From NCBI GenBank assembly GCA_903825395.1, contig CAIKAF010000010.1:16700-80699 (forward strand): a stretch of DNA of 64,000 nucleotides. The letters run 5' to 3'. The stretch comes from an uncultured Flavobacteriales bacterium. GTDB lineage: Bacteria; Bacteroidota; Bacteroidia; CAIKAF01. The position numbers and the translations under genes are program-made. The notes under the pieces are model-generated. The model did not search any database, was not told the DNA's origin, and saw only the letters and a program-made list of their open reading frames with translations. How positions within the stretch are numbered: position 1 is the stretch's first letter; each line of letters opens with the position of its first letter. This document shows, one piece after another, positions 27,355 through 63,460 of the stretch.

Positions 27355-27509
27355 GACTTGAAGTTTTTTTTGCCGCGAAGGACACCATGTCGGCACAAAG
27401 TGCACAGAGGGAGTGGTGTTATACCGAGAGTGTGCAGGAGTTCCGAGGCTCCTTTGCGAACATTGCGGCTTCCTTTGCGGCCATTGCGGTAAAAAATGGC
27501 GGTTAGGCC
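27355..27509 (-). repeat. dispersed repeat family 1, reverse orientation
   Basis: The reverse complement reads ttttttaccgcaatggccgcaaaggaagccgcaatgttcgcaaaggagcc...ccctctgtgcactttgtgccgacat, matching the 37783-37920 copy. Confidence 0.7.
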
Positions 27510-27602
27510 TTGATGGGTTTTTCACGGAAAAGAACACTTAAGCGACAACATTCAAAAATCCAAACCAGAGAAAGGCCTGTTTCCCCTCATATTTTATATT
27601 TG

Positions 27603-27914: not shown

Positions 27915-28004
27915 GGGTGTGTTGTGTCGCTAGAGGGCTCGTGGCTCCTTTGCGAACATTGCGGCTTCCTTTGCGGCCTTTGTGTTAAAAATTGGCGGTT
28001 AGGC
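27915..28004 (-). repeat. dispersed repeat family 1, partial copy (reverse orientation)
   Basis: gctcgtggctcctttgcgaacattgcggcttcctttgcggcc...ggcggttaggcc is near-identical to 27440-27509. Confidence 0.6.
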
Positions 28005-28259
28005 CTATTAATTGCTTTTGATGGAGTCGAGCTGTTAAAACCCGAAAAGCGCTATAAATGGATGTAAACACTCCTACCTCCCCGATTCCCCCCGCCGGGT
28101 AAGATTTCATAGATTTTTGGAAGACCCTAAAAAACACTGATTTACAGATACTTAACCGATTCGCTCCGGCAAAGCCCGTTGCGTTTCAGTTCTTTTGTAA
28201 TAACTTGTCCTTTTAAAACCTTAAACCGCGGCGAAACCCCGCCAAATTTGTACAAAACT

Positions 28260-37753: not shown

Positions 37754-37782
37754 TTTTTGAGTGTGGTTAAGGCTTGACTGCC

Positions 37783-37920
37783 TTTTTTTACCACCAAGGC
37801 CGCCAAGGGAGCCGCAATGTTCCCAAAGGAGCCTCCAAACTCTTGCACACCCTCGCTGTAACTACATTCCCTCTGTGCCCTTTGCGCCGACATTGAGTCC
37901 TTTGTGGTAAAAAACAGGTT
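37783..37920 (+). repeat. dispersed repeat family 1
   Basis: tttttaccaccaaggccgccaagggagccgcaatgttcccaaaggagcc...ctctgtgccctttgcgccgacattgagtcctttgtggtaaaaaacagg. Lies between convergent preA and the PNP gene. Confidence 0.7.
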
Positions 37921-37939
37921 CCGGCTTCAATGCCACTGT

Positions 37940-38767
37940 TTATTTCGCTTCTTGTGCCAAGCGCAAGCCACCCAAAATGATTTCCGACATGGTTTTTCCG
38001 GCGGTTTCGGCCGCATTTAAAACGTCTTGCAATACTACCTTGCGTATTCGGCCCGGCACTCCCAAATCGGTGATGGCAGAAAAACCGGAACACCCTATTC
38101 CCATGTGCCGAGCAGCCAACACTTCGGGTACTGTAGACATGCCCACGGCGTCTGCGCCAATGGTTCGTATCCATCGGTATTCTGCCGGTGTTTCCAGAGC
38201 TGGGCCCTTCAGGGCAGCATACACTCCCTCATGCATTTTTGTGTTTAAGTGTTGGGCCGCCTGTCTGAAATATCCGGCCCAAGTAGCATCATAGGAATCG
38301 TGCATGTCTGGAAACCTGGGGCCCAATTGCTCAATATTGGGTCCCGACAAGGGGGAGTCTCCCAGCAAATTCAAATGGTCGGTAATCATCATCACTTCGC
38401 CCACTTCCATATCTGGATTCACTCCGCCTGCGGCGTTGGTCACCACCAAATGGGTTATCCCCAACATTCCCATCACCCGAATTGGGAATACCACCTGAGC
38501 CAACGAATAGCCTTCATAGTAATGAAAGCGCCCTTTCATTCCCAACACCTTAAACCCTTGGATTGTTCCCGCATGCAATTCGCCGGCATGGCTTTGAACT
38601 GTACTTGTTGGAAAATGGGGTATTGCAGAATAGGGAATTCGTTGGGCGTCTTTCATTTCTTTCATCAGTTGGCCCAAACCGGTTCCTAGAACCAAGCCAA
38701 TTTCGGGCTGAAATCCTTGCAATTCCTTCTTAAGAAAGTTTGCGGCTTCGTTCAATTCTGTCCACAT
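37940..38767 (-). CDS. purine nucleoside phosphorylase (PNP/MTAP family)
   Basis: 275 aa. The GTGLGQL, HFPTSTVQSHAGEL and AVGMSTVPEV blocks are typical of PNP-I. Confidence 0.75.
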   Translation of the reverse strand: MWTELNEAANFLKKELQGFQPEIGLVLGTGLGQLMKEMKDAQRIPYSAIPHFPTSTVQSHAGELHAGTIQGFKVLGMKGRFHYYEGYSLAQVVFPIRVMGMLGITHLVVTNAAGGVNPDMEVGEVMMITDHLNLLGDSPLSGPNIEQLGPRFPDMHDSYDATWAGYFRQAAQHLNTKMHEGVYAALKGPALETPAEYRWIRTIGADAVGMSTVPEVLAARHMGIGCSGFSAITDLGVPGRIRKVVLQDVLNAAETAGKTMSEIILGGLRLAQEAK

Positions 38768-39713
38768 GCTGCATGATTTTTTGAGTTAATTCTGATGCTG
38801 AAGGCCGAAGGATCGACAGGCGCAAAGGTACAAGGGCCAAGCGTGATAGGGTAGCTGCTGCAGGCCCCAATCGAGCCAAATCCTTACCTGTAGTTAGAAT
38901 ATATCGCCCGGCGGCCCGACGCTCCAGTGCCTCTATTTCCTTCGTGTTCATATGGCCATGATCGGGGAGGGCATAGGGTTCCCAACCGGGGAATGCTAGG
39001 CGCAAACTTTGGTTGTCTGCCAGGCCGGTCAGCAAAATTCCCGGAACTTCCGGATTGATTTGATTTCCAGTTCGCAGATCGACTGCCGGACCCATTTCTT
39101 CCAAAAAGCAGGCATCCCAATCGCTGGGGCAATCCATATTGGGCGGACATTTGGTTAAAAAAAGAACATCAAATTGGGTTCGGGTTCGGAAGGGTTGCCT
39201 CCAACGGCCTGCGGGAAGCAGGTCCTTATTCCTCTGATTAAAAGCGGAATGGCTGACCAAACAAATGGAAATGTCGGGTTGCAGGAGGTGGTGTTGTAAG
39301 CCATCGTCCAACAGCACCCATTGTACCTGTGGGTGGTGTTTTTGAATCCATTCCACGCCTTTTCTTCTGTTTTCTGAAACAACAACGGGCAGATGTGGAA
39401 GCGCGCGTTTGAGTTCCAAGGCCTCGTCGCCGGTTTCTGTTGCCAGGCTATTGACAAGGACCTCTACGATACCCTTACTTGTCCTTCCATATCCCCTAGA
39501 AAGGATTCCGATGTTTCGGTGTTGACAAAGCTGTTCTGACAGCCAGCGCACCATGGGCGTTTTTCCGCTGCCTCCAACGGTTAAGTTCCCCACCACCAGG
39601 GTGGGCAAAACGGCCTTTTTCCTCAGGCCCAAACGGAAAATAAGAAAGCGGTGCAGTAAAAACCCAAGCCAATACACGGGCACCAATATCCGAAACCAAG
39701 GGCTTGGGCTCAT
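38730..39713 (-). CDS. lpxK: tetraacyldisaccharide 4'-kinase
   Basis: P-loop VVGNLTVGGSGKTPMV at the characteristic position. 327 aa. Confidence 0.75.
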   Translation of the reverse strand: MSPSPWFRILVPVYWLGFLLHRFLIFRLGLRKKAVLPTLVVGNLTVGGSGKTPMVRWLSEQLCQHRNIGILSRGYGRTSKGIVEVLVNSLATETGDEALELKRALPHLPVVVSENRRKGVEWIQKHHPQVQWVLLDDGLQHHLLQPDISICLVSHSAFNQRNKDLLPAGRWRQPFRTRTQFDVLFLTKCPPNMDCPSDWDACFLEEMGPAVDLRTGNQINPEVPGILLTGLADNQSLRLAFPGWEPYALPDHGHMNTKEIEALERRAAGRYILTTGKDLARLGPAAATLSRLALVPLRLSILRPSASELTQKIMQHVDRIERSRKLS

Positions 39714-39830
39714 GCTTCAAAGGTAGGGGTTGTAGGGGAGGTTTGAAAGGGGAGCACGTATTGGATTTGGAATTTTAGGTTGTCCCCTCGTTTCCAATAC
39801 ATTCTATTACGAATCCCCCCCAAGTCTCAA

Positions 39831-39985
39831 CGCCGCCCGCGGCAGGGATTGAAGAGGGTAGGACGCCAGTGTGCCGGAGCCTGGCCCGCGAGGCGCGGAG
39901 GCGACCTTGGGAGCCCCCGCAAGCCCGCTGGGCCAGCCTTCCGGCACCGGCGGACTAGCCCTGAAAGCCCGCCCGCCGCCCCCCC
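39831..39985 (-). repeat. GC-rich dispersed element, copy B (reverse orientation)
   Basis: cccgcggcagggattgaag...gcggaggcgaccttgggagcccccgcaagcccgctgggccagcc...gaaagcccgcccgccgccccc. Confidence 0.8.
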
Positions 39986-39996
39986 CCAAAAAAAAA
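39979..39996. repeat. homopolymer tract C9 followed by A9
   Basis: cccccccccaaaaaaaaa read directly. Lies 143 nt upstream of the 40139 ORF start, at the edge of repeat copy B. Confidence 0.9.
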
Positions 39997-40138
39997 TCAA
40001 ATACCCCCACAATCTCCGCAATAAAATCGGGGCAGCAGACCCAATCTGCTCAAGCCGTTTGCCTCACGCAGATAAAACCACTTAAAATTTAATTTTCTCG
40101 GTGTATCTTTAACCTAATGTTATCAGGAAACCAACCCT

Positions 40139-42031
40139 ATGAAAAATACTCTTGCTTTTTTATGCATGCTGCTGCTGGGCGGCCTTGCCCACCTTGATGT
40201 TGCGGCTCAAGCCTGCCCCGGATGTGCCGTGAATCCAAGCTGTTATGTGCCCGGCGGCGGACTGTGTCCAGATTCTCTGCCCGCAGCTACGGTTGCCCAA
40301 GCCTACTCACAAGATGTTACATTTTACCTGCCAAGGCAAATCGATGCCGGACCTTTTTCTGGCGGATTGCTGGGCATTGTAGATTTGCTGCAACTCCGCA
40401 TTGATGCCATTTCCGGACTGCCTTTCGGATTGAACTGGTCTTGCAATATGAACAGCAACAACTGCACCTATTTTCCCTCTTCCAACGATACGCTGGGTTG
40501 TGTGCGCATTTGCGGAACTCCCGTCGGAAACCCCGGCGTGTATGCCGTTACCATTTTTGTTACCGCCACTGTCGATGCCGGCATTTTAGGACCTCAACAA
40601 GCCCAAACCTCGTTCCCTAACGTATTGGTATTGCTTCCAGATACCACCTCGAACTTGGGCTTCTCTATGGCCCCCGGAATTGGCTGTGCCCCACTCACCG
40701 TGAATTTCATCAACAACTTTCCCAGCAACGGCTATGTTCCGATTCCCGGACAAACCCAAGGATTTTTATACAATTGGGATTTTGGGAACGGACTGCAATC
40801 CAACATTGAAAATCCCCCGGCCGTCACCTTTTATGCCCCCGGCCAATATCCGGTGAATTATACCGCAACCGTCGACACCTTTGGATTCCAGCTGACCAAT
40901 GTTACAGTTACGGCCGTCAATTGCAGCGATTTTGGCAGCAGTGCCGATGTGTACATCAAAATCTTTGATGGCTCAAACACCGAAATTTTCAACAACGAAA
41001 GCAACCAAACAACAACCTTGCCGTTTAACGTTTCTTTAAGCATTGATGCCACCAATCCGCCCTACCGACTTGAAGTCTGGGACGACGATTCCGGGTTTTT
41101 AGGCACTGCCGACGACAATTGCTTTGACGACACCGAAAACCCCCACCCCCCTGTGGTCATGAATCTGCCACCGGTGAACGTCTTAGGAACTACGACCCAG
41201 TATTTCACGAGCGGAAATACTCCCTTGGCCTTTAATTATACCTACACCAAAAACACCTTCCAGGTTCAGGTGAGCGATACGGTTACGGTATTCCCCGTGC
41301 CGCCTGTCCAAAGCTTGGTGTTGAGTCCGGGGAATAAAGTCTGCAGTCCCGATTCCATTGAAATGCGGGTAAGCCCGGGGTTTGGCTATGAATGGTTTAT
41401 GAACGATACGATGCTGCTGGCCGGGGCCATTACAGAACAGGCTTTTGCCAAACAAACCGGCTCGTACAAAGTACGGGTGTATGACCTCAATACCGGCTGC
41501 TATTCTTTTAGCCACGATACGTTGATTACCGTTGCTCCCGGAATCCCCGGCAATTTTGCCATTCTTCAAAATCCCCCAGGAACGCTGAATTCCTCCATTT
41601 CCGGATTCTACTCTTTCCAATGGATTTTCCAGTCTGGCACGGCCTGGCTGCCCATCCCCGCCCCTCAAGGTCAACAATCCACCTACATTCATCCCATTGG
41701 TGGGTTTTATGGGCTTATTGCCACCAACCCCGAAGGCTGCACCGATACCGCATTCTTTAATTACAACGGAACCTCGTTCGAGGTGTTCGAATCTTCCGTG
41801 CAACTCTACCCAAATCCAGCTAAAAACCAGATTAATATTCATGTGGAGGGATCGGAGATTCTTAAGCTGAGCATACTTGATTTTGCCGGACGCCTCATCT
41901 CAGAACAAAGCTGGACAGAAGGACAGTCGAACATTGAGCTATCGCTGATTGGCTGGCAAAGTGGGTATTATTTTGCTTTGGTAGAAGGCCCATTAGGCCG
42001 CCGGGCCTTGCCCTTTATTAAAATAGAATAA
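40139..42031 (+). CDS. secreted protein with PKD/Ig-like beta domains and T9SS C-terminal sorting domain
   Basis: Signal peptide. Cys-rich N-terminus (CPGCAVNPSCY). C-terminal VQLYPNPAKNQINIHVEG...SGYYFALVEG has T9SS CTD features. Confidence 0.55.
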   Translation: MKNTLAFLCMLLLGGLAHLDVAAQACPGCAVNPSCYVPGGGLCPDSLPAATVAQAYSQDVTFYLPRQIDAGPFSGGLLGIVDLLQLRIDAISGLPFGLNWSCNMNSNNCTYFPSSNDTLGCVRICGTPVGNPGVYAVTIFVTATVDAGILGPQQAQTSFPNVLVLLPDTTSNLGFSMAPGIGCAPLTVNFINNFPSNGYVPIPGQTQGFLYNWDFGNGLQSNIENPPAVTFYAPGQYPVNYTATVDTFGFQLTNVTVTAVNCSDFGSSADVYIKIFDGSNTEIFNNESNQTTTLPFNVSLSIDATNPPYRLEVWDDDSGFLGTADDNCFDDTENPHPPVVMNLPPVNVLGTTTQYFTSGNTPLAFNYTYTKNTFQVQVSDTVTVFPVPPVQSLVLSPGNKVCSPDSIEMRVSPGFGYEWFMNDTMLLAGAITEQAFAKQTGSYKVRVYDLNTGCYSFSHDTLITVAPGIPGNFAILQNPPGTLNSSISGFYSFQWIFQSGTAWLPIPAPQGQQSTYIHPIGGFYGLIATNPEGCTDTAFFNYNGTSFEVFESSVQLYPNPAKNQINIHVEGSEILKLSILDFAGRLISEQSWTEGQSNIELSLIGWQSGYYFALVEGPLGRRALPFIKIE

Positions 42032-42039
42032 ACGGAACC

Positions 42040-44427
42040 TTGGGTCAGCCCAACAAAATAAGAGCGGCCTTTCGATCCGCCCTTTTTCTGGTCTGGACAG
42101 TCTGGATTCCCTTGTGTCTGCAAGGACAAAACCCTACGTTTGTCTTTTCAGGCAAGGTGGTGGATTCTGAAAGCGGAGAAGGCCTGCCGGCAGCGACGCT
42201 TCAGGAAAACGGCAAGGTGCTTTCTGTCTGCAATGCCAAAGGCGAATTCAGCTTTTCCTTCAACTCAGAATCCCTCACTGTTTCGGTTCGATACATGGGC
42301 TATCAGGCCTTTGAAACCAAACTAAATGCGTCAACGGCCTTTCACACCATACCACTGCAGGCATCTTCTACAGCTCTGGCAGCCGTAGTCGTTACAGGAA
42401 GCCGATATGGCAAACGCGCCGCCGAAGAAACCGTCAGCATCGAAGTGATTGGCAAAGAACTGATTAAAAACACGGCTGCGGTTGAAACCGCCGAAATGCT
42501 GAATCGAGTACCCGGAATTCAGGTTTCTGACGGACAAGCCAACATCCGCGGAGGCTCCGGATATGCCTATGGCGTTGGAAGCCGCGTTTCGGTATTGCTC
42601 GATGGACTCCCCATTCTTGCCGCCGACCAAATGAACGCGGAATGGCAATACTTACCCCTAGAAATTACCGATCAAATTGAAGTCATAAAAGGGGCCAGCT
42701 CGGTGCTGTACGGTTCTGGCTCAATGAATGGAATTGTACATGTGCTTACCACCTGGCCCGGCCAAGAACCTGAAACTCGGCTTGCCGTATATTCTGAGGT
42801 GTTCGACCAGCCACGAACTCCCGAGCAACGCTGGTACAGCAGCGGCGAAACACCCAACGCCCATGGCATGTTTTTCAGCCATACGCAAAAAATTGGAGAC
42901 GATGTTGACTTGGTCATCGGAGGCAATTCGCACTTGGAACGCAGCTTCCGACAATTTAACGATGAGCAACGCCTGCGGCTCAACATTAAAACCCGCTATC
43001 GAATTCCCTCTAAACCCGGCATGACTTTGGGCATCAACGCCACGGGCATGTATGAAAACAGCAGCCGTTTTTTGCTTTGGTCGGGCTCAGATGCCAATGC
43101 CTATCGAGCCTTTGCCTACAGCGACGACCGCTATTATTTTTTTAATGTGGATCCTTTTTGGACCTGGAACCGCAGCAAGGCCTCCCACCAGTTAAAAACC
43201 CGATACTTCCGCAAATTAAGATTTGGAACGGGCACCGACATCGATGCCATTGCCAACATTGCTCTGGCCGATTATCAATTCCAACAACGGCTTTGGAAAC
43301 AAAAATTGGTGATGACCGTGGGCGGTACCGGCAGCTATGGCTGGACTCAAAGCAATTTGTTTTTACCTGAACTGCAATTGGACTCCTTGGGAAACCCGGC
43401 CCGCTTCTTTGAATTGTTCTCGGCCGCCGTATTCGGGCAGCTTGAGGGAACCTTTAACCGGTTGAATGTGCTGTTGGGACTGCGCTATGAAGTGAATGGA
43501 GCCGATTTGCTTGTCGAAGGCTCAATCCCTGTACTGCGCTTGGGCGCAAATTACCGCATTTCAGAACAAACCTTTGCCCGCGTTTCCTTCGGTCAGTCGT
43601 ATCGGATGCCCAGTTTGGCCGAACGGTTTTTGCAGAGCAATGTTGGCGGATTGAATATTTTTCCCAATTTCGATTTGTTGCCTGAAACGGGAATCAACAG
43701 CGAACTGGGCATTAAATCTGGATTCAGAATTGGAAAACACTGGACTGGAAGCCTTGACGCAGCGTTGTTTTGGATGGAATACGATCGCATGACAGAATAT
43801 ACTCTGGGCTTTTATCCTCCGGCCGGTACCGACACCGCTCTGTCTTGGCTTGGATGGAAATCGCTGAATACCGGCCGAGCCCGAATGGCAGGGTTTGAAT
43901 GGTCAATACAAGGTTCGGGGAATTTCGGCCGCCTAAAAATTCAGCCTATGCTGGGATACACCTACAGCTTTGGGACAAACTTAGACGACAACCCCGACAT
44001 GATTGCGCCCGGCATATTTCTGGAGCGCATGTTCACTACCCTATTTCAAAATTTAATCAATCAACCCGAAGCGAATTGGCTGCTTCCTATGCGCAGCCGC
44101 CATTTGATTCGGATGGATTTGCAGGCCGATTGGAAACGCTGGGGCTTAGGCATCAACCTTCGCTACCAATCCTTCATCGAACGCTATGATCCCAATTTTG
44201 GAGTCATTTCGCTCGCCATCCCCGATTTCAACGACAGTTATCTGGCAAATCGAACACATCGGAACGGCGACTGCATCATTGATCTTCGGCTTCAGTACCG
44301 CATTCCAAAATGGAATTGCCGCCTTTCCTTCTTGGTCAAAAATATAGGTAGCTTGGAATTCGCCGACCGTCCCGGCATTATGAACGCGCCCCGCAGCTTC
44401 AATCTGCGCTGGGACTTTTCTTGGTAA
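42040..44427 (+). CDS. TonB-dependent outer-membrane receptor (CarbopepD_reg + plug + barrel)
   Basis: FSGKVVDSESGEGLPAATL (CarbopepD_reg), a plug domain and a terminal aromatic (RWDFSW). 795 aa. Confidence 0.75.
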   Translation: MGQPNKIRAAFRSALFLVWTVWIPLCLQGQNPTFVFSGKVVDSESGEGLPAATLQENGKVLSVCNAKGEFSFSFNSESLTVSVRYMGYQAFETKLNASTAFHTIPLQASSTALAAVVVTGSRYGKRAAEETVSIEVIGKELIKNTAAVETAEMLNRVPGIQVSDGQANIRGGSGYAYGVGSRVSVLLDGLPILAADQMNAEWQYLPLEITDQIEVIKGASSVLYGSGSMNGIVHVLTTWPGQEPETRLAVYSEVFDQPRTPEQRWYSSGETPNAHGMFFSHTQKIGDDVDLVIGGNSHLERSFRQFNDEQRLRLNIKTRYRIPSKPGMTLGINATGMYENSSRFLLWSGSDANAYRAFAYSDDRYYFFNVDPFWTWNRSKASHQLKTRYFRKLRFGTGTDIDAIANIALADYQFQQRLWKQKLVMTVGGTGSYGWTQSNLFLPELQLDSLGNPARFFELFSAAVFGQLEGTFNRLNVLLGLRYEVNGADLLVEGSIPVLRLGANYRISEQTFARVSFGQSYRMPSLAERFLQSNVGGLNIFPNFDLLPETGINSELGIKSGFRIGKHWTGSLDAALFWMEYDRMTEYTLGFYPPAGTDTALSWLGWKSLNTGRARMAGFEWSIQGSGNFGRLKIQPMLGYTYSFGTNLDDNPDMIAPGIFLERMFTTLFQNLINQPEANWLLPMRSRHLIRMDLQADWKRWGLGINLRYQSFIERYDPNFGVISLAIPDFNDSYLANRTHRNGDCIIDLRLQYRIPKWNCRLSFLVKNIGSLEFADRPGIMNAPRSFNLRWDFSW

Positions 44428-44436
44428 GAGGGGTAT

Positions 44437-44586
44437 TCGGGCGGCAGCCGGGCTTTCAGGGGTAGTCTGCCCTTGCCGAAAGGCGGGCCCAGCGGGCTTG
44501 CGGGGGCTCCTAAAGTCGCCTCCGCGCCGCGCGGGCCCGGCTTCGGCAACGGGCAGAGCTACCCTCTTCAATCCCTGCCGCGGGCC
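44437..44586 (+). repeat. GC-rich dispersed element, copy C
   Basis: gggcggcagccgggctttcaggggtagtc...gcgggcccagcgggcttgcgggggctcctaaagtcgcctccgcgccgcgcgggcccggc...caatccctgccgcgggcc. Overlaps the last ~6 codons of menD. Confidence 0.8.
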
Positions 44587-46220
44587 ACCTCATTCCATGA
44601 CGCCGCTCGCCGTGCTTGATAGGTGTTCCATGCCGCCGTATTTTCCCGCGCATCGGTTTGCAGTTCAATGACTCCCGTGCGAATTCCATCCCAAATTTTT
44701 AGGCAATCTGCCAACTCCTGAACGCATCCACAACAGGCATACCGAAGCCCAAACCGCTGGGCAAACCAGGCAAAGGTGTCGGTTCGGGCAGCCACAAAAT
44801 GCCGTTCTACATCAGCAGATGCCGCGGGAGGCCCCGGCAGATTTCTAAATATTTGACCCCCAAAATTATTGAGGATCACTACCAATACATTGGTTGGGAA
44901 AGGCTGGCTCAGCAGGGCATTGTTGTCGTAGTTCATGGCCAAATCGCCAATCAAAACCACATGTTGGCGCAGGGGGTCGGCCAAAGCCTGTCCCACTGCA
45001 GTAGATAAGGTGCCGTCAATTCCACTCAAACCTCTGTTGCACCACAGTTCAATTCCCTCAGGCAGCATAGTTTGAAGCGCATCTACATAGCGTACACTCA
45101 TGCTGTTTGCCACATGCATTACCGAGTCGGCCTGCAGTTGCTTCAATATGAAGGCAACCGCGGAAACATCCGACCACGTTTCATCCCATTCTTCAATGTC
45201 GGCCATTGGCAAAACCATGGGCTCAAGGGGTTGGGGTAAGGAGTTGAAAAACGCCGCCACCGAACCCATCCAAAACGGTTGCTGTGGTAAAAATCGATAT
45301 CCCGGCTGTTCAAACAAATCCACATGCAAGGTCTTCTGACCGGGGAACCGAGAAAAGAAGGACTCCCATCGCCGTGGAACCATAGAACCTCCCACTGAAA
45401 CAAGCACGTGGGGAAGACCTTCCTCAGTTGGACGGCTCCACAACCAAAATGGGAAATCGCTGCGCGACGAAAACGACCACAAGTGCGAGGACACATCCCC
45501 CCAAAACGCCCCACCTTTGGCAATAAATTCTCGGATAAAAGGCTGCAGTTCCAGCGCAGATTTTCGATCCATATGGCCGGCCAAAATGGCTATTCTGGGT
45601 CGAGCCGGCACATTCAACTCGGCCAAAGAACGAATGCCTTGGCCAAGATCAATCGCTGGCCCCTCTTGAGTTAAGACCAAAGGTTCAGAGCCCGGATGCA
45701 CCGTACTTCCATCGTCTGCCTCATACAAGGGCTCTTCAAACCGAATGTTCAGGTGTACCGGCCCGGGTTTCCCTTGGCACAACACATCCCAGGTTTGATC
45801 CGGATGGCCGGGATCTAGATTTGAAACCAGAGTCCGACCTTTAATAAATCCCTGAAAAAAAGATTCCTGCCATAGGGTTTGCCCCTCATGTGCAGGCACG
45901 TACCGCGAAGGCCTGTCGGCAGTAATGACCACCAATCCAACTCCCTGATGATAGGCCTCGGCTATTGCTGGGCCATAATTAATTCCAGCCGAACCGCTGC
46001 TGCAAATTAAGCCTACCGGGCGCTGCCATTGCCGGGCAAGCCCAAGGGCAATAAACCCCGCTGAACGCTCATCGGGATGAACAACCATCCGAACACCGGG
46101 CAAGGATTCTAAGGCCAGAATTAAAGGCGCAGAACGAGAACCTGGCGAAACCACAAAATCGCGCAACCCCTTTTCAAAAAGAGCCTGAATCCAAAACCGG
46201 GCCAGTGCTGCTGCGTTCAT
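44568..46220 (-). CDS. menD: 2-succinyl-5-enolpyruvyl-6-hydroxy-3-cyclohexene-1-carboxylate synthase (ThDP enzyme, menaquinone pathway)
   Basis: N-terminus FVVSPGSRSAPL...HPDERSAGFIALG...GPAIAEAY typical of MenD. ThDP-binding GDLA...N motif. 550 aa. Confidence 0.8.
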   Translation of the reverse strand: MNAAALARFWIQALFEKGLRDFVVSPGSRSAPLILALESLPGVRMVVHPDERSAGFIALGLARQWQRPVGLICSSGSAGINYGPAIAEAYHQGVGLVVITADRPSRYVPAHEGQTLWQESFFQGFIKGRTLVSNLDPGHPDQTWDVLCQGKPGPVHLNIRFEEPLYEADDGSTVHPGSEPLVLTQEGPAIDLGQGIRSLAELNVPARPRIAILAGHMDRKSALELQPFIREFIAKGGAFWGDVSSHLWSFSSRSDFPFWLWSRPTEEGLPHVLVSVGGSMVPRRWESFFSRFPGQKTLHVDLFEQPGYRFLPQQPFWMGSVAAFFNSLPQPLEPMVLPMADIEEWDETWSDVSAVAFILKQLQADSVMHVANSMSVRYVDALQTMLPEGIELWCNRGLSGIDGTLSTAVGQALADPLRQHVVLIGDLAMNYDNNALLSQPFPTNVLVVILNNFGGQIFRNLPGPPAASADVERHFVAARTDTFAWFAQRFGLRYACCGCVQELADCLKIWDGIRTGVIELQTDARENTAAWNTYQARRAASWNEVARGRD

Positions 46221-46334: not shown

Positions 46335-49013
46335 ATGTCTGAAACGTTGTCTCCTCTTTCTCCCTTACTTCGGCTTTCGGGCCTTGAAGCCTTGGTGGCG
46401 ACCTCCACCACCAATTTTATCAACATTGGTGAACGGTGCAATGTAACAGGCTCCCGAAAGTTCCTTCGATTGATTCAAGAAAACCAGTACGACGAAGCCG
46501 TAGGAATTGCCTTAGAACAAGTTCGCGGTGGAGCTCAAATTCTGGACGTTAACATGGACGAAGGCATGCTGGACGGGAAACGAGCCATGGTGCGCTTCTT
46601 AAATCTAATTGCTGCCGAACCTGAAATTGCCCGTATTCCCATTATGATTGACAGTTCCCGCTGGGAAATCATTCATGCCGGATTAAAATGCCTGCAAGGA
46701 AAAGGCATGGTAAATTCCATTTCGCTGAAATCGGGAGAAGAAGAATTCCTATACCAAGCAGCGGAAATCCGTAAGTTTGGCGCCGCAGTGGTGGTAATGG
46801 CCTTTGATGAACAGGGACAGGCCGATACCCTTCAACGCCGAATTGATATTTGCCAACGGGCCTACAACCTGCTGGTGAAAAAGGTCGGTTTCTCTCCCAG
46901 TGATATTGTTTTTGATCCCAATATTTTCCCCGTTGCCACTGGGATTGAGGAACACAACAATTACGCCCTCGATTTCTTTGAAGCCACCCGGTGGATTAAA
47001 GCCAATCTGCCCTACGCCAAGGTTTCGGGTGGAGTTTCCAATGTCTCATTTTCTTTTCGCGGCAACGACCGCGTTCGCGAAGCCATGCACTCTGCTTTCT
47101 TATACCACGGCATACAAGCCGGCATGGATATGGGCATTGTGAACCCATCGCAATTGGAAGTGTATGACGACATTCCCGCCACCTTGCTTGAACACGTAGA
47201 AGACGTGCTGCTCAACCGCCGTCCCGATGCCACAGAACGCTTGCTCAACTTGGCCGAAGAGTTTAAAACATCCAGGCAAAAAGAGGTAACTACCGAAGCT
47301 TGGCGGGAAGGCCCAGTTCAAGAACGACTCAGCTATGCCTTGGTAAAGGGGATTGTAGATTTTATTGATGCCGACGTTGAAGAAGCACGGCAATACTACG
47401 ACCGACCCATTCAGGTCATTGAAGGACCGCTAATGGACGGCATGAATCACGTTGGAGATTTGTTTGGTGCCGGAAAAATGTTCCTCCCTCAGGTGGTTAA
47501 ATCCGCCCGAGTTATGAAAAAGGCCGTGGCTCAGCTGATTCCGTACATCGAAGCAGAAGCCCAGGGAGAAGTTCAGAAAAAAGGCCGAATCTTAATGGCT
47601 ACGGTAAAAGGAGATGTTCACGATATTGGCAAAAACATTGTGGGTGTTGTGCTGGGTTGCAACAATTACGACATCATTGACCTTGGAGTAATGGTGCCTG
47701 CCGAGAAAATTCTGGCCGAAGCCAAAGCCCAGGAGGTGGATATTATTGGCCTTAGTGGCTTAATTACTCCTAGCCTAGAAGAAATGGTATTCCTCGCCTC
47801 TGAAATGCAGCGGCAAGGGTTTACAATTCCTCTTCTAATTGGCGGAGCTACTACATCAAAAGCACACACCGCAGTGAAAATAGCTCCGGCATATACCGCA
47901 GGTCCTGTTGTACACGTTTTAGATGCCAGCCGCTCTGTTCCCGTTGCCGAGGCACTGCTTGGCGATAAAAAAGAAGGATTCCTTCAGCAATGGGAAGAAG
48001 AGTATGCCGAGGTGCGTAGCCGATTTGAGCGGCAGCAGGAAGAGAAAAATTTAATCTCCCTGCGCAGCGCCCGCGCCAATGCCGCTCGGTCTACCGCACT
48101 TCTGCCGCCAGCCCCAGCTCCGGCTCAATTGGGCCTGCAACACCTTAAAAATTACCCCCTGGAAAAACTAATTCCATACATCGATTGGACACCTTTTTTC
48201 CAAACCTGGGAACTGGCGGGTCGTTTTCCGGCCATTCTGGAAGATACCGTTGTGGGAGAACAAGCCCGAGAGCTATTTGCCGATGCCCAATTTATGCTGA
48301 ACCAATTGGTGCAAGAGGGTTGGTTAACAGCCAATGCCAGTTTTGGACTTTTCCCCGCCCGGCGCGAGGGCGATAGCGTGGTTGTGTATTCCGACGAAAC
48401 TCGAAAGCAGGAAATCAGCCGATTCCATTTTTTACGGCAGCAAAACCTAAAACAAGCCGGGCAACCAAATTACTGCCTAGCCGATTTCATCTCAGAAGAT
48501 GCCCCCGATTACATCGGCGCCTTCGCCGTCACCACTGGAATCGGCATTGAAAGCCATTTGCAGCGCTTTGAAGCCGACCACGACGACTACCGTTCCATTC
48601 TTTTAAAGGCCCTGGCCGACCGATTGGCAGAGGCGTTTGCTGAACACCTGCATGCCCGTATTCGAAGAGAAATCTGGGGCTATGCCCCAAATGAAAATTT
48701 AGACAACGAAGCGCTAATTAAAGAAAAATACCAAGGCATACGCCCGGCACCCGGATACCCCGCTTGCCCCGACCATACTGAAAAACCCAGGCTGTTTGAG
48801 TTGCTGAATGCCAGCGCAGAATCCGGAATGCACCTGACCGAATCTATGGCCATGATGCCCGCCAGCAGTGTCTGCGGCTGGTATTTTGCTCATCCCGATT
48901 CAAGGTATTTTGGTTTAGGCAAAATAACGGAAGAACAGGGCCGAGACCTTGCCGAGCGAAAGGGAATTCCCTGGGAAGACCTGCGGCGCTGGCTTAGCCC
49001 AAACCTGGCCTAA
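46335..49013 (+). CDS. metH: methionine synthase core: pterin-binding + B12-cap + B12-binding + AdoMet-activation domains (lacks Hcy-binding domain)
   Basis: The pterin-binding block [15 protein letters not shown]...[11 protein letters not shown]12-binding [10 protein letters not shown] and GLSGL, and the C-terminal reactivation domain. 892 aa, i.e. MetH minus the N-terminal ~340 aa. Confidence 0.85.
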
Positions 49014-49098: not shown

Positions 49099-50382
49099 AT
49101 GACACGTCTTTTGCTTTCTCTTGGCCTGATTTTATTCTCCAAGGCCTTTTCCCAGAACATACATTTGGGCAGCAATACGCCCGCAGACCCTTCCTCTGTT
49201 GTAGAAATTTCCTCTACAACCGGAGGCTTTTTAGTGCCTCGAATGACCACCGTCCAGCGCAATGCCATTCAAAATCCCGCCACGGCACTTCAAATTTTCA
49301 ATACCGATACCGATTGCCTGGAAATGTATTATTCCGGTGGAGGCTGGCGTAGCATTCATTGCGATTGCCAAGCCTTTCCCAACGCCGTTTTTGCCGTTCC
49401 CAACGGCTACATAAATCAGGCCGCATCATTTAGCGCCCCTCCCAATATGACCTACAGCTGGAGTTTTCAAAACGGCACGCCTTCCAGCTCTGTATTGCAA
49501 AACCCACAACCCAGCTGGTCAAGCCCCGGAACCTACGCTGTTTCACTGTCCTTGACCGACAGCGCCGGCTGCTCCTCTTCGCATACCGATTCCATTACGG
49601 TTATCAACTGTGCCCCAGCCACCGGCGGAACCATTACCACCTCTGGCCCCTGGACCATTCATACTTTTACCGGCAATGGAACGTTTAACCCCGGCTGCAG
49701 CCGCACCATAGAATACTTGATTGTGGCTGGTGGCGGTGGCGGCGGAGATGGGAATGCCGGTGGCGGTGGGGGCGGAGCCGGTGGTTTTGTCGAAGGCTCT
49801 GTTCAGCTTTCTCCAGGAAATTACTCCATCGTAGTAGGAAGCGGAGGCGCCGGAAGCACGGTTCAAGATGGTGTTGGTCAATCTGGTAACAATTCCAGCT
49901 TTAACAACATTATAGCCTTTGGCGGCGGCCGCGGTGGTGGATATGTAAGCCCCAACGGCGCCAATGGAGGAAGTGGCGGTGGGGGCAGTGGCCCATCTGG
50001 AAGCGGACAAGGCGGGTCTTCAACCCAAACCTCTCCACAAGGCGGAAATGGGTATGGATTTTCGGGTGCGCCCTATGCCGGCGGCGACGGCGGTGGCGGC
50101 GGTGGAGCCGGTGGGGCAGCCAATAGCAGAAATGGAGGGCCCGGCCGCAACAGTTCTATATCTGGCAACACGGTAACCTATGCCGGAGGTGGCGGCGGAG
50201 CCCGCTACCTAGGTCAAGCGGGCTTAGGTGGTTCCGGAGGTGGCGGAAATGGAGGATATTACCCCGGAAATGGAAACGGACAAAATGGCCAAGCCAACAC
50301 CGGGGGCGGAGGCGGAGGTTCCGGCGATGGCCCCATCGGGGGCAATGGCGGCTCTGGTATTGTTATTCTTCGGTACCAATAA
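49099..50382 (+). CDS. secreted protein of paralogous family: shared N-terminal module + PKD-like domain + long glycine-rich C-terminal domain
   Basis: Signal peptide. PADPSSVVEISSTTGGFLVPRMTTVQRNAIQNPATALQIFNTDTDCLE, then TYSWSF...GTYAVSL, then ~230 aa of G-runs ending GSGIVILRY. Confidence 0.6.
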   Translation: MTRLLLSLGLILFSKAFSQNIHLGSNTPADPSSVVEISSTTGGFLVPRMTTVQRNAIQNPATALQIFNTDTDCLEMYYSGGGWRSIHCDCQAFPNAVFAVPNGYINQAASFSAPPNMTYSWSFQNGTPSSSVLQNPQPSWSSPGTYAVSLSLTDSAGCSSSHTDSITVINCAPATGGTITTSGPWTIHTFTGNGTFNPGCSRTIEYLIVAGGGGGGDGNAGGGGGGAGGFVEGSVQLSPGNYSIVVGSGGAGSTVQDGVGQSGNNSSFNNIIAFGGGRGGGYVSPNGANGGSGGGGSGPSGSGQGGSSTQTSPQGGNGYGFSGAPYAGGDGGGGGGAGGAANSRNGGPGRNSSISGNTVTYAGGGGGARYLGQAGLGGSGGGGNGGYYPGNGNGQNGQANTGGGGGGSGDGPIGGNGGSGIVILRYQ

Positions 50383-50418
50383 ATTCCCAAGCTCTAAAAC
50401 CAACCAAACCTCTCTCCC

Positions 50419-51990
50419 ATGAAACAATTGCTCGGCCTTATCTTGCTGATTTTCTCGGCCAATCTTAGCGCCCAAGGGGTAAAAATCAACCATGGAACAC
50501 CAAGTCCGGCAGACAGTTCGGCCATTTTGGAATTGGAATCGACCCAAAAAGGATTTCTGCTGCCTAGGCTCACTACAGCACAGCGAAATGCCATCGCTTC
50601 TCCTGCAGTAGGATTGCAAATTTACAACACTTCAACCCGCTGCGTAGAAACCTTTTTTCCTGTAGGTTGGAGGCCAACAGGATGTCAATGTACCGCGTTC
50701 CCCAATGCTGGATTCACCCTTCAACCCGCTTTCCCATCGGCGGGCTTCCCAATCCAGTTTATGGCCAACGATTCCTCCAATGCCCTTTCCTGGACTTTCC
50801 AAAACGGAAGCCCCGCTAACGATACCGTCGGAGCCCCCATTGTAATATTTTCCAACCCAGATACCGTTTCGGTAGTGCTTCGTGCTACCGATTCTCAAGG
50901 CTGCCAAGATTCAACAACTCAAACCATTGTTATTCAAAATTGCCCCCTGAATACCCCAAACCCGGCCTTTACCGCTTCACCCGCAAGTCCGGGAACAAAT
51001 CAAGCGGTAACGTTTAACCCAAGTAGCCTAGTGGGGGTGTCTCACAGTTGGTCTTTTGCCAGTGGTAACCCAGGGAGTTCTTCGGCTACAAATCCAACCT
51101 CCACCTGGTCAAGCGCAGGAACTTATTCTGTCATTCATCAAGTTACCGATTCTAGCACCGGCTGCGTTCAAGCCGATACCTTGGCTCTGGTTGTAAGCTC
51201 CTGCATTACAGGAGGCAATGCCAATTTTATTTTCACGGGTAACCTTCAGCTTTGGACAGCTCCGGCTGGGGTATGTACGATTCAAGTAGAAGGCTGGGGC
51301 GCCCGCGGAGGAGATGGCGGTGGCTATGGGGCCTACGTGGTAGGAACCTTTTCCGTTACCCCTGGGCAGCAATATAAAATTTTAGTTGGCCGGAAAGGAA
51401 ACAATGGCAACGGCGGTGGCGGCGGTGGCGGGACATGGTTTACCGATGCCAACAACAATCCATTGTTGGTAGCTGGGGGCGGAGGCGGTAAAGGCTATGG
51501 CAATTCCAACCTGCCTTCCTCAGTAAATGGCGGCGCTTGCGGAGGCTCAGGCTGCTCGGGAACCCAAGGCTCATGCGGAAGCCCTGGCACCGGCGGAAGC
51601 AACGGCGCCGGGGGACTTGGGGCCACCTGCACTCAAAATGGAACCGGAGGCGGTGGCGGCGCCGGAACACTAACCGGCGGGGGAACAGCAAACGGCTGTT
51701 CCTATTCCCAAAGCACAGGCGGAGCCGCATTTGTGAATGGGGGTGCCGGGGGCTTAGGGGGCTGTGGAGTGGCAGGAGGATTCGGCGGCGGTGGTGGTGG
51801 CGGTTGCAACGGCGGTGGAGGTGGCGGCGGAGGAGGATATTCTGGCGGCGGCGGCGGAAATCCCTGGTGCAACAACGGAGGAATTGGAGGCCATGGCGGC
51901 GGCGGTGGCTGCTACAACACCGGAACCAACACATCTTTAACGGTGGGCGGCAACCTCAACGACGACGGCAGGTTGTACATCACCTGGTAA
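50419..51990 (+). CDS. secreted protein of the same paralogous family (N-terminal module + PKD-like repeats + glycine-rich C-terminal domain)
   Basis: PSPADSSAILELESTQKGFLLPRLTTAQRNAIASPAVGLQIYNTSTRCVE. Two PKD-like blocks (ALSWTFQNGSP..., SHSWSFASGNP...). A Gly-rich tail ending GRLYITW. Confidence 0.6.
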   Translation: MKQLLGLILLIFSANLSAQGVKINHGTPSPADSSAILELESTQKGFLLPRLTTAQRNAIASPAVGLQIYNTSTRCVETFFPVGWRPTGCQCTAFPNAGFTLQPAFPSAGFPIQFMANDSSNALSWTFQNGSPANDTVGAPIVIFSNPDTVSVVLRATDSQGCQDSTTQTIVIQNCPLNTPNPAFTASPASPGTNQAVTFNPSSLVGVSHSWSFASGNPGSSSATNPTSTWSSAGTYSVIHQVTDSSTGCVQADTLALVVSSCITGGNANFIFTGNLQLWTAPAGVCTIQVEGWGARGGDGGGYGAYVVGTFSVTPGQQYKILVGRKGNNGNGGGGGGGTWFTDANNNPLLVAGGGGGKGYGNSNLPSSVNGGACGGSGCSGTQGSCGSPGTGGSNGAGGLGATCTQNGTGGGGGAGTLTGGGTANGCSYSQSTGGAAFVNGGAGGLGGCGVAGGFGGGGGGGCNGGGGGGGGGYSGGGGGNPWCNNGGIGGHGGGGGCYNTGTNTSLTVGGNLNDDGRLYITW

Positions 51991-56751: not shown

Positions 56752-56875
56752 AGGGTTGGCAGGTTAGTGAGGTCGATTTCCATCTAGGTCGCAAAATATT
56801 GATTTTTCCTTTCTTATCCCCCTCCATTTTTTAGGGTGAATCATTGATTTGGATAGGTTCTTTTCTGTTTTTTCT

Positions 56876-57025
56876 TGGGCGGCTGCGGGCTTTCGTGGGT
56901 AGTCCGCGGTGGGCGGAAGTCTGGCCCAGCGGGCTTGCGGGGGCTCCCAAGGTCGCCTCCGCGCCACGCGGGCCAGGCTCCGCCCACCTTGCGGGCAACC
57001 CTACTCAATCCCTGCCGCAGGGCCC
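56876..57025 (+). repeat. GC-rich dispersed element, copy D
   Basis: gggcggctgcgggctttcgtgggtagtccgcggtgggcggaagtctggcccagcgggcttgcgggggctcccaaggtcgcctccgcgccacgcgggccaggctcc...caatccctgccgcagggcc. Confidence 0.8.
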
Positions 57026-57114
57026 CCTCCTACCTAGGCTCTCCATATTGATTTTTCATCCACAACAGCGAATTTCAGCTTAGCCTACTCAGCCAACCCG
57101 CCTATGGCCTATCT

Positions 57115-57360
57115 TTGGGTGTGATTTTCATTGGCAACCTTCCTTATGCCTTCACTGAACAGGAGCTTAAAGACCTGTTTAGTCCGTTTGGCGAGGCCCA
57201 ATCGGTTCAGTTGATTCGGGACCGAATTTCGGGCCGAAGCCGCGGATTTGGGTTTGTAGACCTGAGCAATTCACAGCAAGAAATTGCTGCCATCGAGGCC
57301 CTGCAGGGCCTCGAATTGGAAGGAAGAACCATTCGAATAAGCAAGAAGCACCATGAATAG
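57115..57360 (+). CDS. RRM-type RNA-binding protein
   Basis: RNP-2 (IFIGNLPY) and RNP-1 (RGFGFVDL) motifs. 81 aa. Confidence 0.7.
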   Translation: MGVIFIGNLPYAFTEQELKDLFSPFGEAQSVQLIRDRISGRSRGFGFVDLSNSQQEIAAIEALQGLELEGRTIRISKKHHE

Positions 57361-58381: not shown

Positions 58382-58427
58382 CCCCCAATCTGCAGTTTTT
58401 CCCTACTCAGTATTAGGCATGATGTGG

Positions 58428-58573
58428 CCCGCGGCAGGGATTGAACCGGGTAGCACGCCAACGGGGCGGAGCCTGGCCCGCGTGGTGCGGAGGCGACTTT
58501 AGGAGCCACCGCAAGCCCGCTGGGCCAGCCTTCCGCCCTGTGCGGACTACCGGTGAAAGCCCGCAGCCGCCCC
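58428..58573 (-). repeat. GC-rich dispersed element, copy E (reverse orientation)
   Basis: cccgcggcagggattgaaccgggtagc...ggcgcggaggcgactttaggagccaccgcaagcccgctgggccagcc...ggtgaaagcccgcagccgccccc. Confidence 0.8.
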
Positions 58574-58592
58574 CATAAAAAACCAAATCCAT

Positions 58593-60431: not shown

Positions 60432-60484
60432 AGGTAAAAACCCATGTAAGATTTAAGGCGGTTTTGGGAAATAAATTGTTGGGG

Positions 60485-62966: not shown

Positions 62967-62990
62967 GTTGAGGAATCTGGTTTTTTTAAT

Positions 62991-63414: not shown

Positions 63415-63460
63415 AATTCCTCACCCTATTTATTCTGTTTTTTGCTGCGGCCTACTCGCT

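Follow-up and report, generated by a model that had tools for sequence, protein, structure and literature searches.

The 64-kb window, by which we mean the whole stretch of DNA analysed, contains nine copies of a GC-rich element of ~154 nt, located with a covariance model, at a density of one copy per about 7 kb (Table 1). Copies B and C form an inverted pair that encloses exactly the genes of a T9SS-sorted secreted protein and a TonB-dependent receptor (TBDR), as identified from ORFs and Pfam domains. D and E enclose exactly an RRM gene and a stand-alone homocysteine methyltransferase (HcyMT), the Hcy-binding part of a split MetH. Both enclosures, and seven copies (A to G), had been noticed in a sequence-only reading of the window. 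All seven are genuine, full-length and correctly placed according to the pattern search (7 matches against 0 expected from shuffles) and the covariance model, with scores of 116-162 bits on the assigned strand and at most 35 bits on the opposite one, so their orientations are unambiguous. Two diverged copies, H (a member of a diverged subfamily) and I, were missing from that list. The polarity of B/C is indeed opposite to that of D/E and F/G: in the strand convention of this analysis the 5' ends point inward in the first pair and outward in the other two. The gap between the inverted copies F and G is AT-rich as described, with a length of 122 nt and not 133 bp, but it is not the empty site that it was taken for. 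These copies lie 24-44 nt behind the stops of two convergent genes, and the layout is a recurrent one, with close (+,-) pairs 40-77 nt apart in L003, L012, L024 and L035.

Table 1 Element copies and genes of the bracketed blocks in the window
Feature	Position	Strand	Score (bits)	Context and basis
Copy A	11310-11462	+	116.3	divergent spacer, Lhr-type helicase gene / ORF 11842-12420 (Pfam)
Copy H	14777-14930	-	45.2 (opposite strand nil)	35 nt past stop of OEP gene 14965-16359
Copy I	21171-21328	+	41.1	diverged; upstream of adh_short gene 21449-22237
LpxK	38730-39713	-		left flank of B/C pair (Pfam)
Copy B	39830-39984	-	143.7	divergent spacer between LpxK and T9SS-sorted protein gene
Secreted protein, Por_Secre_tail (T9SS sorting) and PKD domains	40139-42031	+		B/C block gene 1 (Pfam)
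TonB-dependent receptor (CarbopepD_reg_2, Plug, beta-barrel)	42040-44427	+		B/C block gene 2 (Pfam)
Copy C	44436-44590	+	153.6	5' end 9 nt past TBDR stop
TPP-dependent enzyme	44568-46220	-		conserved neighbour of copy C (Pfam, synteny)
Copy D	56874-57027	+	160.1	divergent spacer, cytochrome c peroxidase (CCP) gene / RRM gene
RRM-domain RNA-binding protein	57115-57360	+		D/E block gene 1 (Pfam)
Stand-alone homocysteine S-methyltransferase (S-methyl_trans; HcyMT)	57353-58381	+		D/E block gene 2 (Pfam)
Copy E	58422-58575	-	161.7	between convergent genes (HcyMT / GATase-domain gene)
Glutamine-amidotransferase (GATase)-domain protein	58593-60431	-		right flank of D/E pair (Pfam)
Copy F	62990-63142	+	153.4	24 nt past stop of gene 61755-62966
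Copy G	63265-63417	-	144.2	44 nt past stop of convergent gene 63461-63961

The repeat is a previously undescribed non-coding long-hairpin element. A single strand folds as one long imperfect hairpin (-90 to -106 kcal/mol) with a conserved base, where a T-run is followed by GGGCGGC..GGGCTTTC pairing with TCAATCCCTGCCGC, and a conserved tip, GGCTCCCAAGGTCGCCTCC. The base stem and the internal loop are nearly invariant and the stems between base and tip covary freely. At the outer ends (TTTT-GGGCGGC and GCCGC-RGGC) the 5' GGGCGGC pairs with the 3' GCCGC as terminal inverted repeats, which are invariant or, in diverged subfamilies, covarying (for example GGGCACC with GGTGC). Over 127 aligned matches double changes were found in 51 of the 54 stem pairs, paired cells reached 93.7% against 75% in shuffles, and the covariation score was 0.41, whereas shuffles gave 0.11 and sliding no more than 0.06. 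Positional orthologues of the copies retain the hairpin at 55-64% identity; it is held by selection even at fixed loci. The + strand has three consensus G-U pairs, and outside these positions sporadic G-U pairs are no commoner than A-C pairs.

Rfam 15 gave zero matches at the gathering threshold over the whole window, and around D and E only chance-level miRNA-type matches (E > 2); with ARAGORN also empty, a tRNA-like, tmRNA or known RNA family was ruled out. Among the matches listed, at least dozens of copies occur in each of at least three freshwater or brackish Bacteroidota MAGs, and from the density in the window some hundreds of copies per genome should be expected in the clade carrying the element, which is one of uncultured freshwater or brackish Bacteroidota. 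Carriage by phages was discarded, the single pattern match in a viral contig being no genuine copy. The element is a non-autonomous interspersed repeat, one of the bacterial hairpin repeats of the broad MITE/REPIN-like class. No transposase was found among the window genes scanned or near copies. Likewise, an all-against-all comparison of the 671 ORFs from all loci gave only orthologues as multicopy families, and no recurrent ORF accompanies the copies in about 0.7 Mb of loci. The loci fetched held no split element with its 5' and 3' halves kilobases apart. Inspection of 89 copies revealed no flanking direct repeats; the only regular feature of their flanks is the T-run on the 5' side.

At least one gene 3' end adjoins 65 of 75 copies (62 of the 72 occupied spacers), and occupancy was 53% in convergent spacers, 37% in co-directional and 24% in divergent ones. 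Where the 5' end of a copy faces a stop codon it lies at a median of 23 nt past it. Among the copies in co-directional spacers the sense and antisense orientations are equally frequent, with 20 each, which indicates a DNA-level repeat and not a transcript-sense one; a transcript-sense 3' UTR element was rejected on these numbers, and an intrinsic terminator because, read either way, the hairpin has its T-run on the wrong side. Copy C is not purely intergenic, since it shares 23 nt with the end of the TPP-enzyme gene: the conserved motif at its 3' end, TCAATCCC, provides this convergent gene with its TGA stop and its final ~7 codons. Copy D lies 123 nt from the CCP gene start and 88 nt from the RRM gene, and copy E has its 5' end 18 nt past the stop of the GATase-domain gene and its 3' end 41 nt past the HcyMT stop. 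Copy B, 99-100% conserved in relatives 97.5-98% identical, points its 5' end and T-run at the start of the T9SS gene. The one candidate for a target duplication, a displaced GGGGxATTCG near the 5' flank of C and the 3' flank of B, was not convincing.

Along the window the copies follow the order + - + - + + - + -. Including 79 loci from other genomes, adjacent copies are mutually inverted in 28 of 31 pairs, or in 24 of 27 after dropping what we judged to be orthologous duplicates (two-sided binomial p about 5e-5, calculated by hand), so the inverted arrangement exceeds chance. There was no signal of local duplication, as adjacent copies are no more alike (identity 0.745) than random copies of the same genome (0.742) and neither B/C nor D/E are sister copies or mutual best matches. 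Copy C has identities of 0.78-0.83 to its paralogues in the window and of 0.56-0.64 to its positional orthologues, to which it is no closer, in either half, than other window copies are. This suggests exchange between copies.

Synteny comparisons revealed three related lineages (L090, L109 and L111), 80-84% identical to each other and about 76% to the window, in which the T9SS(-TBDR) block is turned round with respect to the TPP gene; their orthologues of the T9SS-sorted protein have 82-93% amino acid identity. All three lineages share the order MetH core, TPP, one copy and then a co-directional T9SS gene. Their single copy overlaps the TPP stop by ~22 nt, the same 3' junction as C, and its 5' end adjoins the T9SS promoter-proximal motif AACAxTAGGTTAAAGATAC, as it does at B. 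The spacers that follow are only partly alignable (155 nt from B to the T9SS gene, 81 nt in L090). In the window, the T9SS-TBDR block stands as an island on the opposite strand, with B and C at its sides. In four lineages a copy stays at the TPP 3' end while the T9SS block changes orientation. The neighbour beyond the block is also different, LpxK in the window versus, in L090 and L109, an abutting orthologue of the GATase-domain gene (tblastn, 75-79% amino acid identity), and therefore more than one rearrangement happened. The TBDR gene is found in L090 and L092 and is missing from L109, which makes the supposed cassette divisible. The LpxK arrangement is conserved in every conspecific contig; L081 departs from the window sequence at position 39752. 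A metagenome scan with LpxK retrieved only two short contigs.

At the other locus, RRM and HcyMT are side by side in all relatives examined, including those at 73-74%, where the context is different. The block is cleanly inverted between conserved flanks in L006 relative to L082/L083 (about 84% identical, with collinear flanks; L006 3719-4964 aligns reversed to L082 10984-9739). L006 has the order CCP, one copy and then the flipped HcyMT-RRM. This lone copy is located 125 nt from the CCP start, close to the distance seen for D, and adjoins the HcyMT stop in the same position and orientation as E. At its other junction the L006 inversion lacks a copy, and with a repeat at only one junction an assembly artefact cannot explain the flip. 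In L082/L083 the block has the window orientation and no repeats whatsoever, and any scenario therefore has to invoke additional gains or losses. The same gene order without repeats, with no structural variation at their boundaries, had been named as the observation that would speak against the proposal; the former exists here, but variation at the boundaries exists too. The breakpoints of the L006/L082 inversion and the empty site of D in L082 could not be aligned precisely, the spacers being too diverged. One more synteny breakpoint between the window and L082 has a copy in both genomes, copy I and its positional orthologue at L082 4515-4670.

Assemblies 97.5-100% identical to the window showed neither inversion nor presence/absence polymorphism at the blocks, and the conspecific contigs, from several independent samples, all share the window arrangement in a single orientation. 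The inversion between L067 and L073 has a breakpoint without a copy. A difference among L009, L030 and L005 at near-identical copies was set aside as evidence, because misassembly is possible at repeats that are 97-99% identical. In addition, a three-gene tract of 2 kb (window 12530-14580) is 98-100% identical to one in L082, a genome otherwise ~75% identical. It lies near a copy in both genomes and yet excludes these neighbouring copies, and its limits are the first start codon and the last stop codon, which fits allelic replacement by homologous recombination. With the repeats outside the tract, we rejected it as evidence of cassette mobilisation.

Taken together, the inverted pairs are probably the endpoints of small chromosomal inversions and not the ends of mobile cassettes, with the repeats marking or causing these inversions of gene blocks. 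The T9SS-TBDR and RRM-HcyMT blocks would each have been flipped as a unit during the divergence of these genera, through breaks located at an element copy or within one, and we infer that the copies themselves mediated the flips. The sequence-only reading had offered a composite mobilisable unit or a recombination hotspot. Its observation is confirmed and its interpretation partly supported, since there is structural variation at the boundaries formed by the repeats and genus-level relatives carry both bracketed blocks in the flipped state, as expected of a hotspot. We give roughly equal weight to two routes for the inversions. Homologous recombination might have taken place between two copies already in inverted orientation; by itself this predicts neither the orientation bias nor the single copy of the relatives. 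Alternatively, a duplicative inversion in one step, of the kind produced by intramolecular replicative transposition, could have duplicated a lone resident copy, inverted, to the far side of the block as the block flipped, and the starting state would be the single copy seen in L090, L109, L111 and L006. The fact that adjacent copies are not extra similar and that B/C and D/E are not sisters speaks against a recent event of this kind. Against flips mediated by the copies, there are no convincing target duplications at the junctions that replicative inversion predicts, and no transposase near copies. Furthermore, the association may look stronger than it is because breakpoints and repeats are both restricted to the spacers between transcription units. 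A general local spread by duplicative inversion, with a resident copy replicated inverted into a nearby spacer and the intervening genes flipped, is possible although we remain doubtful about it. If true, the alternating orientation of the copies would be the fossil record of many operon-scale strand flips, the hairpin would be served in trans by a putative enzyme, and a non-coding 150-nt hairpin would be a main driver of gene-order and strand evolution in these freshwater Bacteroidota.

The bracketing pairs could also be a by-product, if the element simply piles up in the long spacers that separate transcription units, above all at the 3' ends of genes, and inversions of unrelated mechanism break in the same spacers. 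We find such a coincidence rather unlikely, but it deserves to be taken seriously. It would account for the preference for gene 3' ends and convergent spacers, the D/E block without copies in L082/L083, the copy-free junctions in L006 and in L067 versus L073, and the presence of only 3 independent islands among about 20 gene-enclosing pairs. However, it does not predict 28 inverted neighbours to 3, nor does it explain why the single copies of the relatives join the 5' junction of one window copy with the 3' junction of the other. Pairing could instead reflect a function in the transcript, as a 3' UTR stabiliser, terminator or regulatory hairpin. The strong covariation and conserved loops, the position of the 5' end shortly past stop codons, the hairpins retained by positional orthologues and the three consensus G-U pairs are all compatible with a structured RNA. 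Nevertheless, we judge it improbable, since orientation with respect to transcription is random in co-directional spacers, the T-run precedes the hairpin and neither reading direction gives an intrinsic terminator, sporadic G-U pairs show no excess over A-C, and the flipped blocks are left unexplained.

Still less credible is that the copies are sites of a site-specific invertase, acting on programmed segments as in a gene-scale inverton or shufflon. Inverted repeats do flank blocks whose orientation differs between lineages, and a flip would detach the block from, or attach it to, upstream promoters. But no recombinase gene was found among the neighbours of the window pairs (LpxK, PNP_UDP_1, TPP enzyme, MetH core, CCP, GATase, FabD-like), the conspecific contigs show one orientation only, hundreds of copies per genome go far beyond what a dedicated switch would have, and repeats of 150 nt are far longer than those of known invertons. 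The least plausible reading, and by now largely refuted, is that of the composite cassette, in which two copies and the enclosed genes move as a transposon-like unit. Whole genes are enclosed by inverted pairs, and the nearly identical three-gene tract lies near a copy in both genomes. On the other hand, there is no transposase or multicopy gene near copies, no target-site duplication was found at the pairs or the predicted junctions, C remains with TPP in four lineages as the block flips, the D/E block is present in L082/L083 without copies, L109 lacks the TBDR gene, the tract leaves out the neighbouring copies within limits that fit allelic replacement, and a pair with its cargo in a second context was never seen. 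Neither do the repeats cause the separation of the Hcy module from the MetH core, as had been suggested. Stand-alone Hcy modules of ~340 aa and Hcy-less MetH cores of ~890 aa are widespread in Bacteroidota, a split unrelated to the element, and a tempting wrong story is thereby removed.

Among known repeats, REPINs have two conserved inverted ends with a less conserved stretch between them and a long hairpin kept by compensatory changes (PMC3116915). The element shares with them the conserved inverted ends and the compensated hairpin, as well as being non-coding, extragenic and multicopy, with persistent, vertically inherited copies. It measures about 154 nt, compared with invariant 16-mers spaced 71 bp in the GI doublet of P. 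fluorescens (PMC3116915). Other differences are the conserved hairpin tip, the T-run before the 5' end and the lack of a RAYT, the IS200-like Y1 transposase that mobilises REPINs, in the loci, which come from incomplete genomes. The terminal GTAG/CGTC tag is not present either: each arm has its sole GTAG at a depth of about 25 nt (alignment columns 31-34), where 25-35% of copies differ by compensatory changes (pair 33/187: AU 64, UA 20, AA 14; pair 34/186: GC 72, CG 24). A classical REP with a GTAG tag was discarded because the motif is internal and variable. The overall size of REPINs differs as well from the about 154 nt of the element, and we know of no report of strong orientation alternation between copies kilobases apart as a REPIN feature.

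Correia elements have a TA target duplication and defined 26-nt terminal inverted repeats, both absent here. Like them and ERIC-type long-hairpin MITEs, the element is a non-autonomous repeat of the 100-160-nt range without transposase and with presumably more than 100 copies per genome, and Correia elements are considered recombination hotspots and found at inversion breakpoints (PMC3454330). The sequences are nevertheless unrelated, the phylum is different (Correia are from Neisseria), and the inversions described here involve blocks of one or two genes instead of large chromosomal segments. Intramolecular replicative transposition of IS26 and related IS produces a flipped segment with two oppositely oriented copies, each retaining one old junction (PMC4471558), and the step from single-copy relatives to the two-copy window matches this predicted product at both loci. 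IS26, however, encodes a transposase and leaves inverted 8-bp target duplications, neither of which was found here, and the paired copies are not sisters. Known invertons have short repeats, a nearby site-specific recombinase and both orientations coexisting in the population. Those of Bacteroidales resemble our case in the inverted repeats flanking a segment of differing orientation, but none of these three traits was seen in the loci or conspecific assemblies. A classical MITE would have the terminal inverted repeats found here and also a target-site duplication, not found at the 89 copies, and a composite transposon would need a transposase, which copies of 154 nt do not encode. Integron attC sites have the core sites R''/R' (RYYYAAC / GTTRRRY) in direct orientation behind each cassette ORF, whereas the element ends in GGGCGGC / GCCGC and its neighbours alternate in orientation.

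Small non-coding repeats are usually dismissed as genomic clutter in metagenome-assembled genomes. If these copies cause the flips, they would explain by a concrete mechanism why streamlined environmental Bacteroidota lose gene order and strand so fast, and would offer a natural setting in which to study what shapes the orientation of repeats, given the inversion of nearly all neighbours. The repeats also disrupt short-read assemblies, and the orientation of contigs is worth checking at the copies; contigs built at k=31 end inside the cores of B and C.

A GC-rich element of ~154 nt occurs in the stretch in seven canonical and two diverged copies (A to I in the table), on which repeat finding, motif search and a covariance model agreed. 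Canonical copies scored 116-162 bits on their true strand against at most 35 bits on the opposite one, so their orientations are secure. The element folds as one long imperfect hairpin (-90 to -106 kcal/mol). Over 127 aligned matches, 93.7% of the stem cells were paired (75% in shuffles), 51 of the 54 stem pairs showed changes on both sides, and the covariation score was 0.41, compared with 0.11 for shuffles and at most 0.06 for slid alignments. Conservation is found in a 5' T-run (four or more T in 61 of 88 copies), in the hairpin base (GGGCGGC..GGGCTTTC paired with TCAATCCCTGCCGC) and at the tip (GGCTCCCAAGGTCGCCTCC), the stems between base and tip being free to vary. The element matched no Rfam family, tRNA or tmRNA. 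Sense and antisense copies were equally frequent in co-directional spacers (20:20), which speaks against an RNA function in the sense of the transcript; copies whose 5' end is towards a stop codon follow it at a median distance of 23 nt. The hairpin was retained in three positional orthologues of only 55-64% identity, and orthologous copies in two metagenome-assembled genomes (VGMT01 and CAILUT01) were 94% identical while their flanks were 88% identical, indicating that the structure is maintained in place. Among the loci compared no recurrent ORF was found near the copies. Our conclusion is that the copies form an undescribed repeat family, hairpin-shaped and non-autonomous, of the MITE/REPIN kind.

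When one genome per species was scanned, the element turned up, among the matches listed, in at least dozens of places in each of VGMT01 (K_DeepCast), JAQCBQ01 (casp15) and CAILUT01 (Lake Erken). Over 7 kb JAQCBQ01 matches the window at ~97.6% identity, and one conspecific protein carries the NCBI label 'Flavobacteriales bacterium'. Other Bacteroidota have diverged relatives of the element with compensated base stems, and the listed matches in other phyla were due to chance. In Erken-type genomes one subfamily of copies is at least 97% identical (L009 1269-5474, L030 3446-5769, L005 6781-6935), which suggests recent amplification. Within this set the content between one inverted pair differs in two 96.6%-identical genomes, possibly by misassembly at near-identical repeats.

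Coordinates of repeat copies and associated genes in the window
Feature	Position	Strand	Remarks
Copy A	11310-11462	+	canonical
Copy B	39830-39984	-	canonical
Copy C	44436-44590	+	canonical
Copy D	56874-57027	+	canonical
Copy E	58422-58575	-	canonical
Copy F	62990-63142	+	canonical
Copy G	63265-63417	-	canonical
Copy H	14777-14930	-	diverged
Copy I	21171-21328	+	diverged
MetH core gene without Hcy domain	46335-49013		Pterin_bind, B12-binding, Met_synt_B12
Separate Hcy-binding module	57353-58381		8 kb from MetH core; 8-nt overlap with RRM gene
Three-gene tract	12532-13656, 13626-14087, 14098-14598	all -	encodes 166-aa ORF, DUF2147, DUF6268
Second repeat family (~155 nt)	7478-7873, 8534-8753, 27366-27511, 27940-28006, 37765-37942		in other convergent/long spacers

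The sequence-only reading had seen inverted pairs of copies as brackets of gene cassettes, and the gene content stood: B and C enclose exactly two genes, for a Por_Secre_tail (T9SS-sorted) protein and a TonB-dependent receptor, and D and E exactly the RRM gene and the stand-alone S-methyl_trans (homocysteine methyltransferase, HcyMT) gene. F and G are also a real inverted pair, with 122 nt between them, but not the empty site they had been taken for, as the two copies lie behind the stop codons of two convergent genes, one behind each. Close (+,-) pairs of this type were found again at other loci. Along the window the copies run + - + - + + - + -, and in the full set of loci 28 of the 31 pairs of neighbours were inverted (24 of 27 without orthologous duplicates, hand-calculated p ~5e-5). 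Adjacent copies were not more alike than random pairs from the same genome (similarity 0.745 vs 0.742), and neither B/C nor D/E were mutual best matches among the window copies. The alternation of orientation is the most intriguing part of the case.

In all contigs compared that are 97.5-100% identical to the window, coming from several samples, the order LpxK, B, T9SS gene, receptor, C, TPP-enzyme gene, MetH core is kept, with B and C conserved at 98.7-100%, so that these contigs show no species-level polymorphism at this locus. Three more distant lineages (L090, L109 and L111, with ~76% identity to the window and 80-84% among themselves) have MetH core, TPP-enzyme gene, one copy and T9SS gene, all co-directional. 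Exactly like C, the single copy runs over the TPP stop by ~22 nt; its 5' end is 79-84 nt from the T9SS start, and the promoter-proximal motif beside that end is common to the window spacer between B and the T9SS gene. No second copy was found at the far end of the T9SS block in these lineages. There, in L090 (6375-8690), only 5 nt lie between the receptor stop and that of a GATase gene, the neighbour of E in the window; L109 (1995-2093) has no receptor gene and its T9SS stop is 98 nt from the GATase stop. This layout indicates that the T9SS block is inverted relative to the TPP-enzyme gene, the breakpoint being at the copy or within it. By sequence, C is closer to the window family than to its positional orthologues. 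The TPP-enzyme ORF extends into the hairpin copy in four lineages (window 44568-44590, L090 4172-4194, L109 4196-4218, L111 ~1420-1439), the conserved TCA of TCAATCCC being its TGA stop and ~7 C-terminal codons being element-derived; the identity of this protein between lineages is only 54-56%, against 75-93% for its neighbours. Another contig, L081, 96-97% identical over LpxK, departs from the window (L081 1-1050 against window 39752 onward): everything upstream of 39752, 78 nt before B, is replaced by AT-rich DNA with a gene for an 89-aa HTH protein. As far as this short contig allows us to judge, B has an island or a rearrangement beside it at strain level.

The D/E block occurs in the window's orientation without the repeats in relatives: L082 and L083 (HcyMT 86% identical in amino acids) have cytochrome c peroxidase (-), RRM (+), HcyMT (+) and another TonB-dependent receptor (-), without element copies. 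In L006, ~84% identical to L082 and with the same flanks, the RRM-HcyMT block is cleanly inverted. Here one copy lies between the peroxidase gene and the HcyMT stop, 125 nt from the peroxidase start (123 nt for D) and oriented to HcyMT like E. The presence of a repeat at only one junction rules out a flip during assembly. In more distant relatives RRM and HcyMT are still adjacent but in another context, and parsimony requires four events for the three D/E states under every scenario.

The structural variation proposed at the repeat boundaries was thus found at both loci, the B/C block being inverted in L090, L109 and L111 and the D/E block in L006 compared with L082. In both, the window has an opposite-strand island within an inverted pair, and in the relative the block is co-directional and has only one copy. 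Each of the two junctions of this single copy is matched by a junction of a different window copy, the trace expected from recombination within the element. Such inversions could come from homologous recombination of two inverted copies, the mechanism put forward for Correia elements (PMC3454330), or from a one-step duplicative inversion, for which the intramolecular replicative transposition of IS26 (PMC4471558) offers a parallel. Both routes fit. The orientation bias speaks for the duplicative route, as do the relatives with a single copy; homologous recombination is favoured by the lack of sister relationships, of target duplications and of a transposase (neither of the last two was found at the copies or near them). 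A passive explanation, in which repeats and breakpoints only happen to lie in the same permissive spacers, is less probable and would leave the orientation bias unexplained. The composite transposon also suggested can be discarded, given that the block flips relative to the TPP-enzyme gene with the copy kept at its stop, that L109 has no receptor and that no ORF recurs near the copies at the loci compared. The closest known systems are REPINs (PMC3116915) and Correia/ERIC-type hairpin MITEs, which have in common with the element the architecture and the link with rearrangements; the element itself carries no REP tag and shows no target duplication, and no enzyme was found for it.

The repeats had also been suggested as a possible reason for the split methionine synthase, an explanation that we reject: the stand-alone Hcy module and the Hcy-less core are both common across Bacteroidota, where the split is a general trait, and distant relatives, too, retain the RRM-Hcy pairing.

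Other repeats and tracts were observed in the window. Three genes (12530-14580) are 98-100% identical to L082 14580-16635, against 70-77% for the rest of that contig; identity drops steeply at the first start and last stop codons, beyond which the two sequences are not homologous. Such a pattern suggests recent allelic replacement between genera. In both genomes a hairpin copy is found upstream of the tract, outside the identical stretch. A second, unrelated intergenic family of ~155 nt (…TTTTACCACAGAGGCCGCCAAGGGAGCCGCAAAGTT…CTTTGCGGTAAAAAAC), partly tandem, is also present in L080. Two more short arrays (4411-4677 and 60482-60691), one with 49-55-nt units and the palindrome GAGCCAAGGCACGCCGTGGTTC, the other with five tandem 42-nt units each containing the palindrome GGGCAGACCTACGTGTCTGCCC, do not look like CRISPR arrays, their units being near-contiguous and without separate unique spacers. 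Finally, two adjacent paralogues at 49099-51990 (repeat-finder family D2) encode PTL_trimer/PKD/Gly-rich proteins with long GGN-rich repeats.
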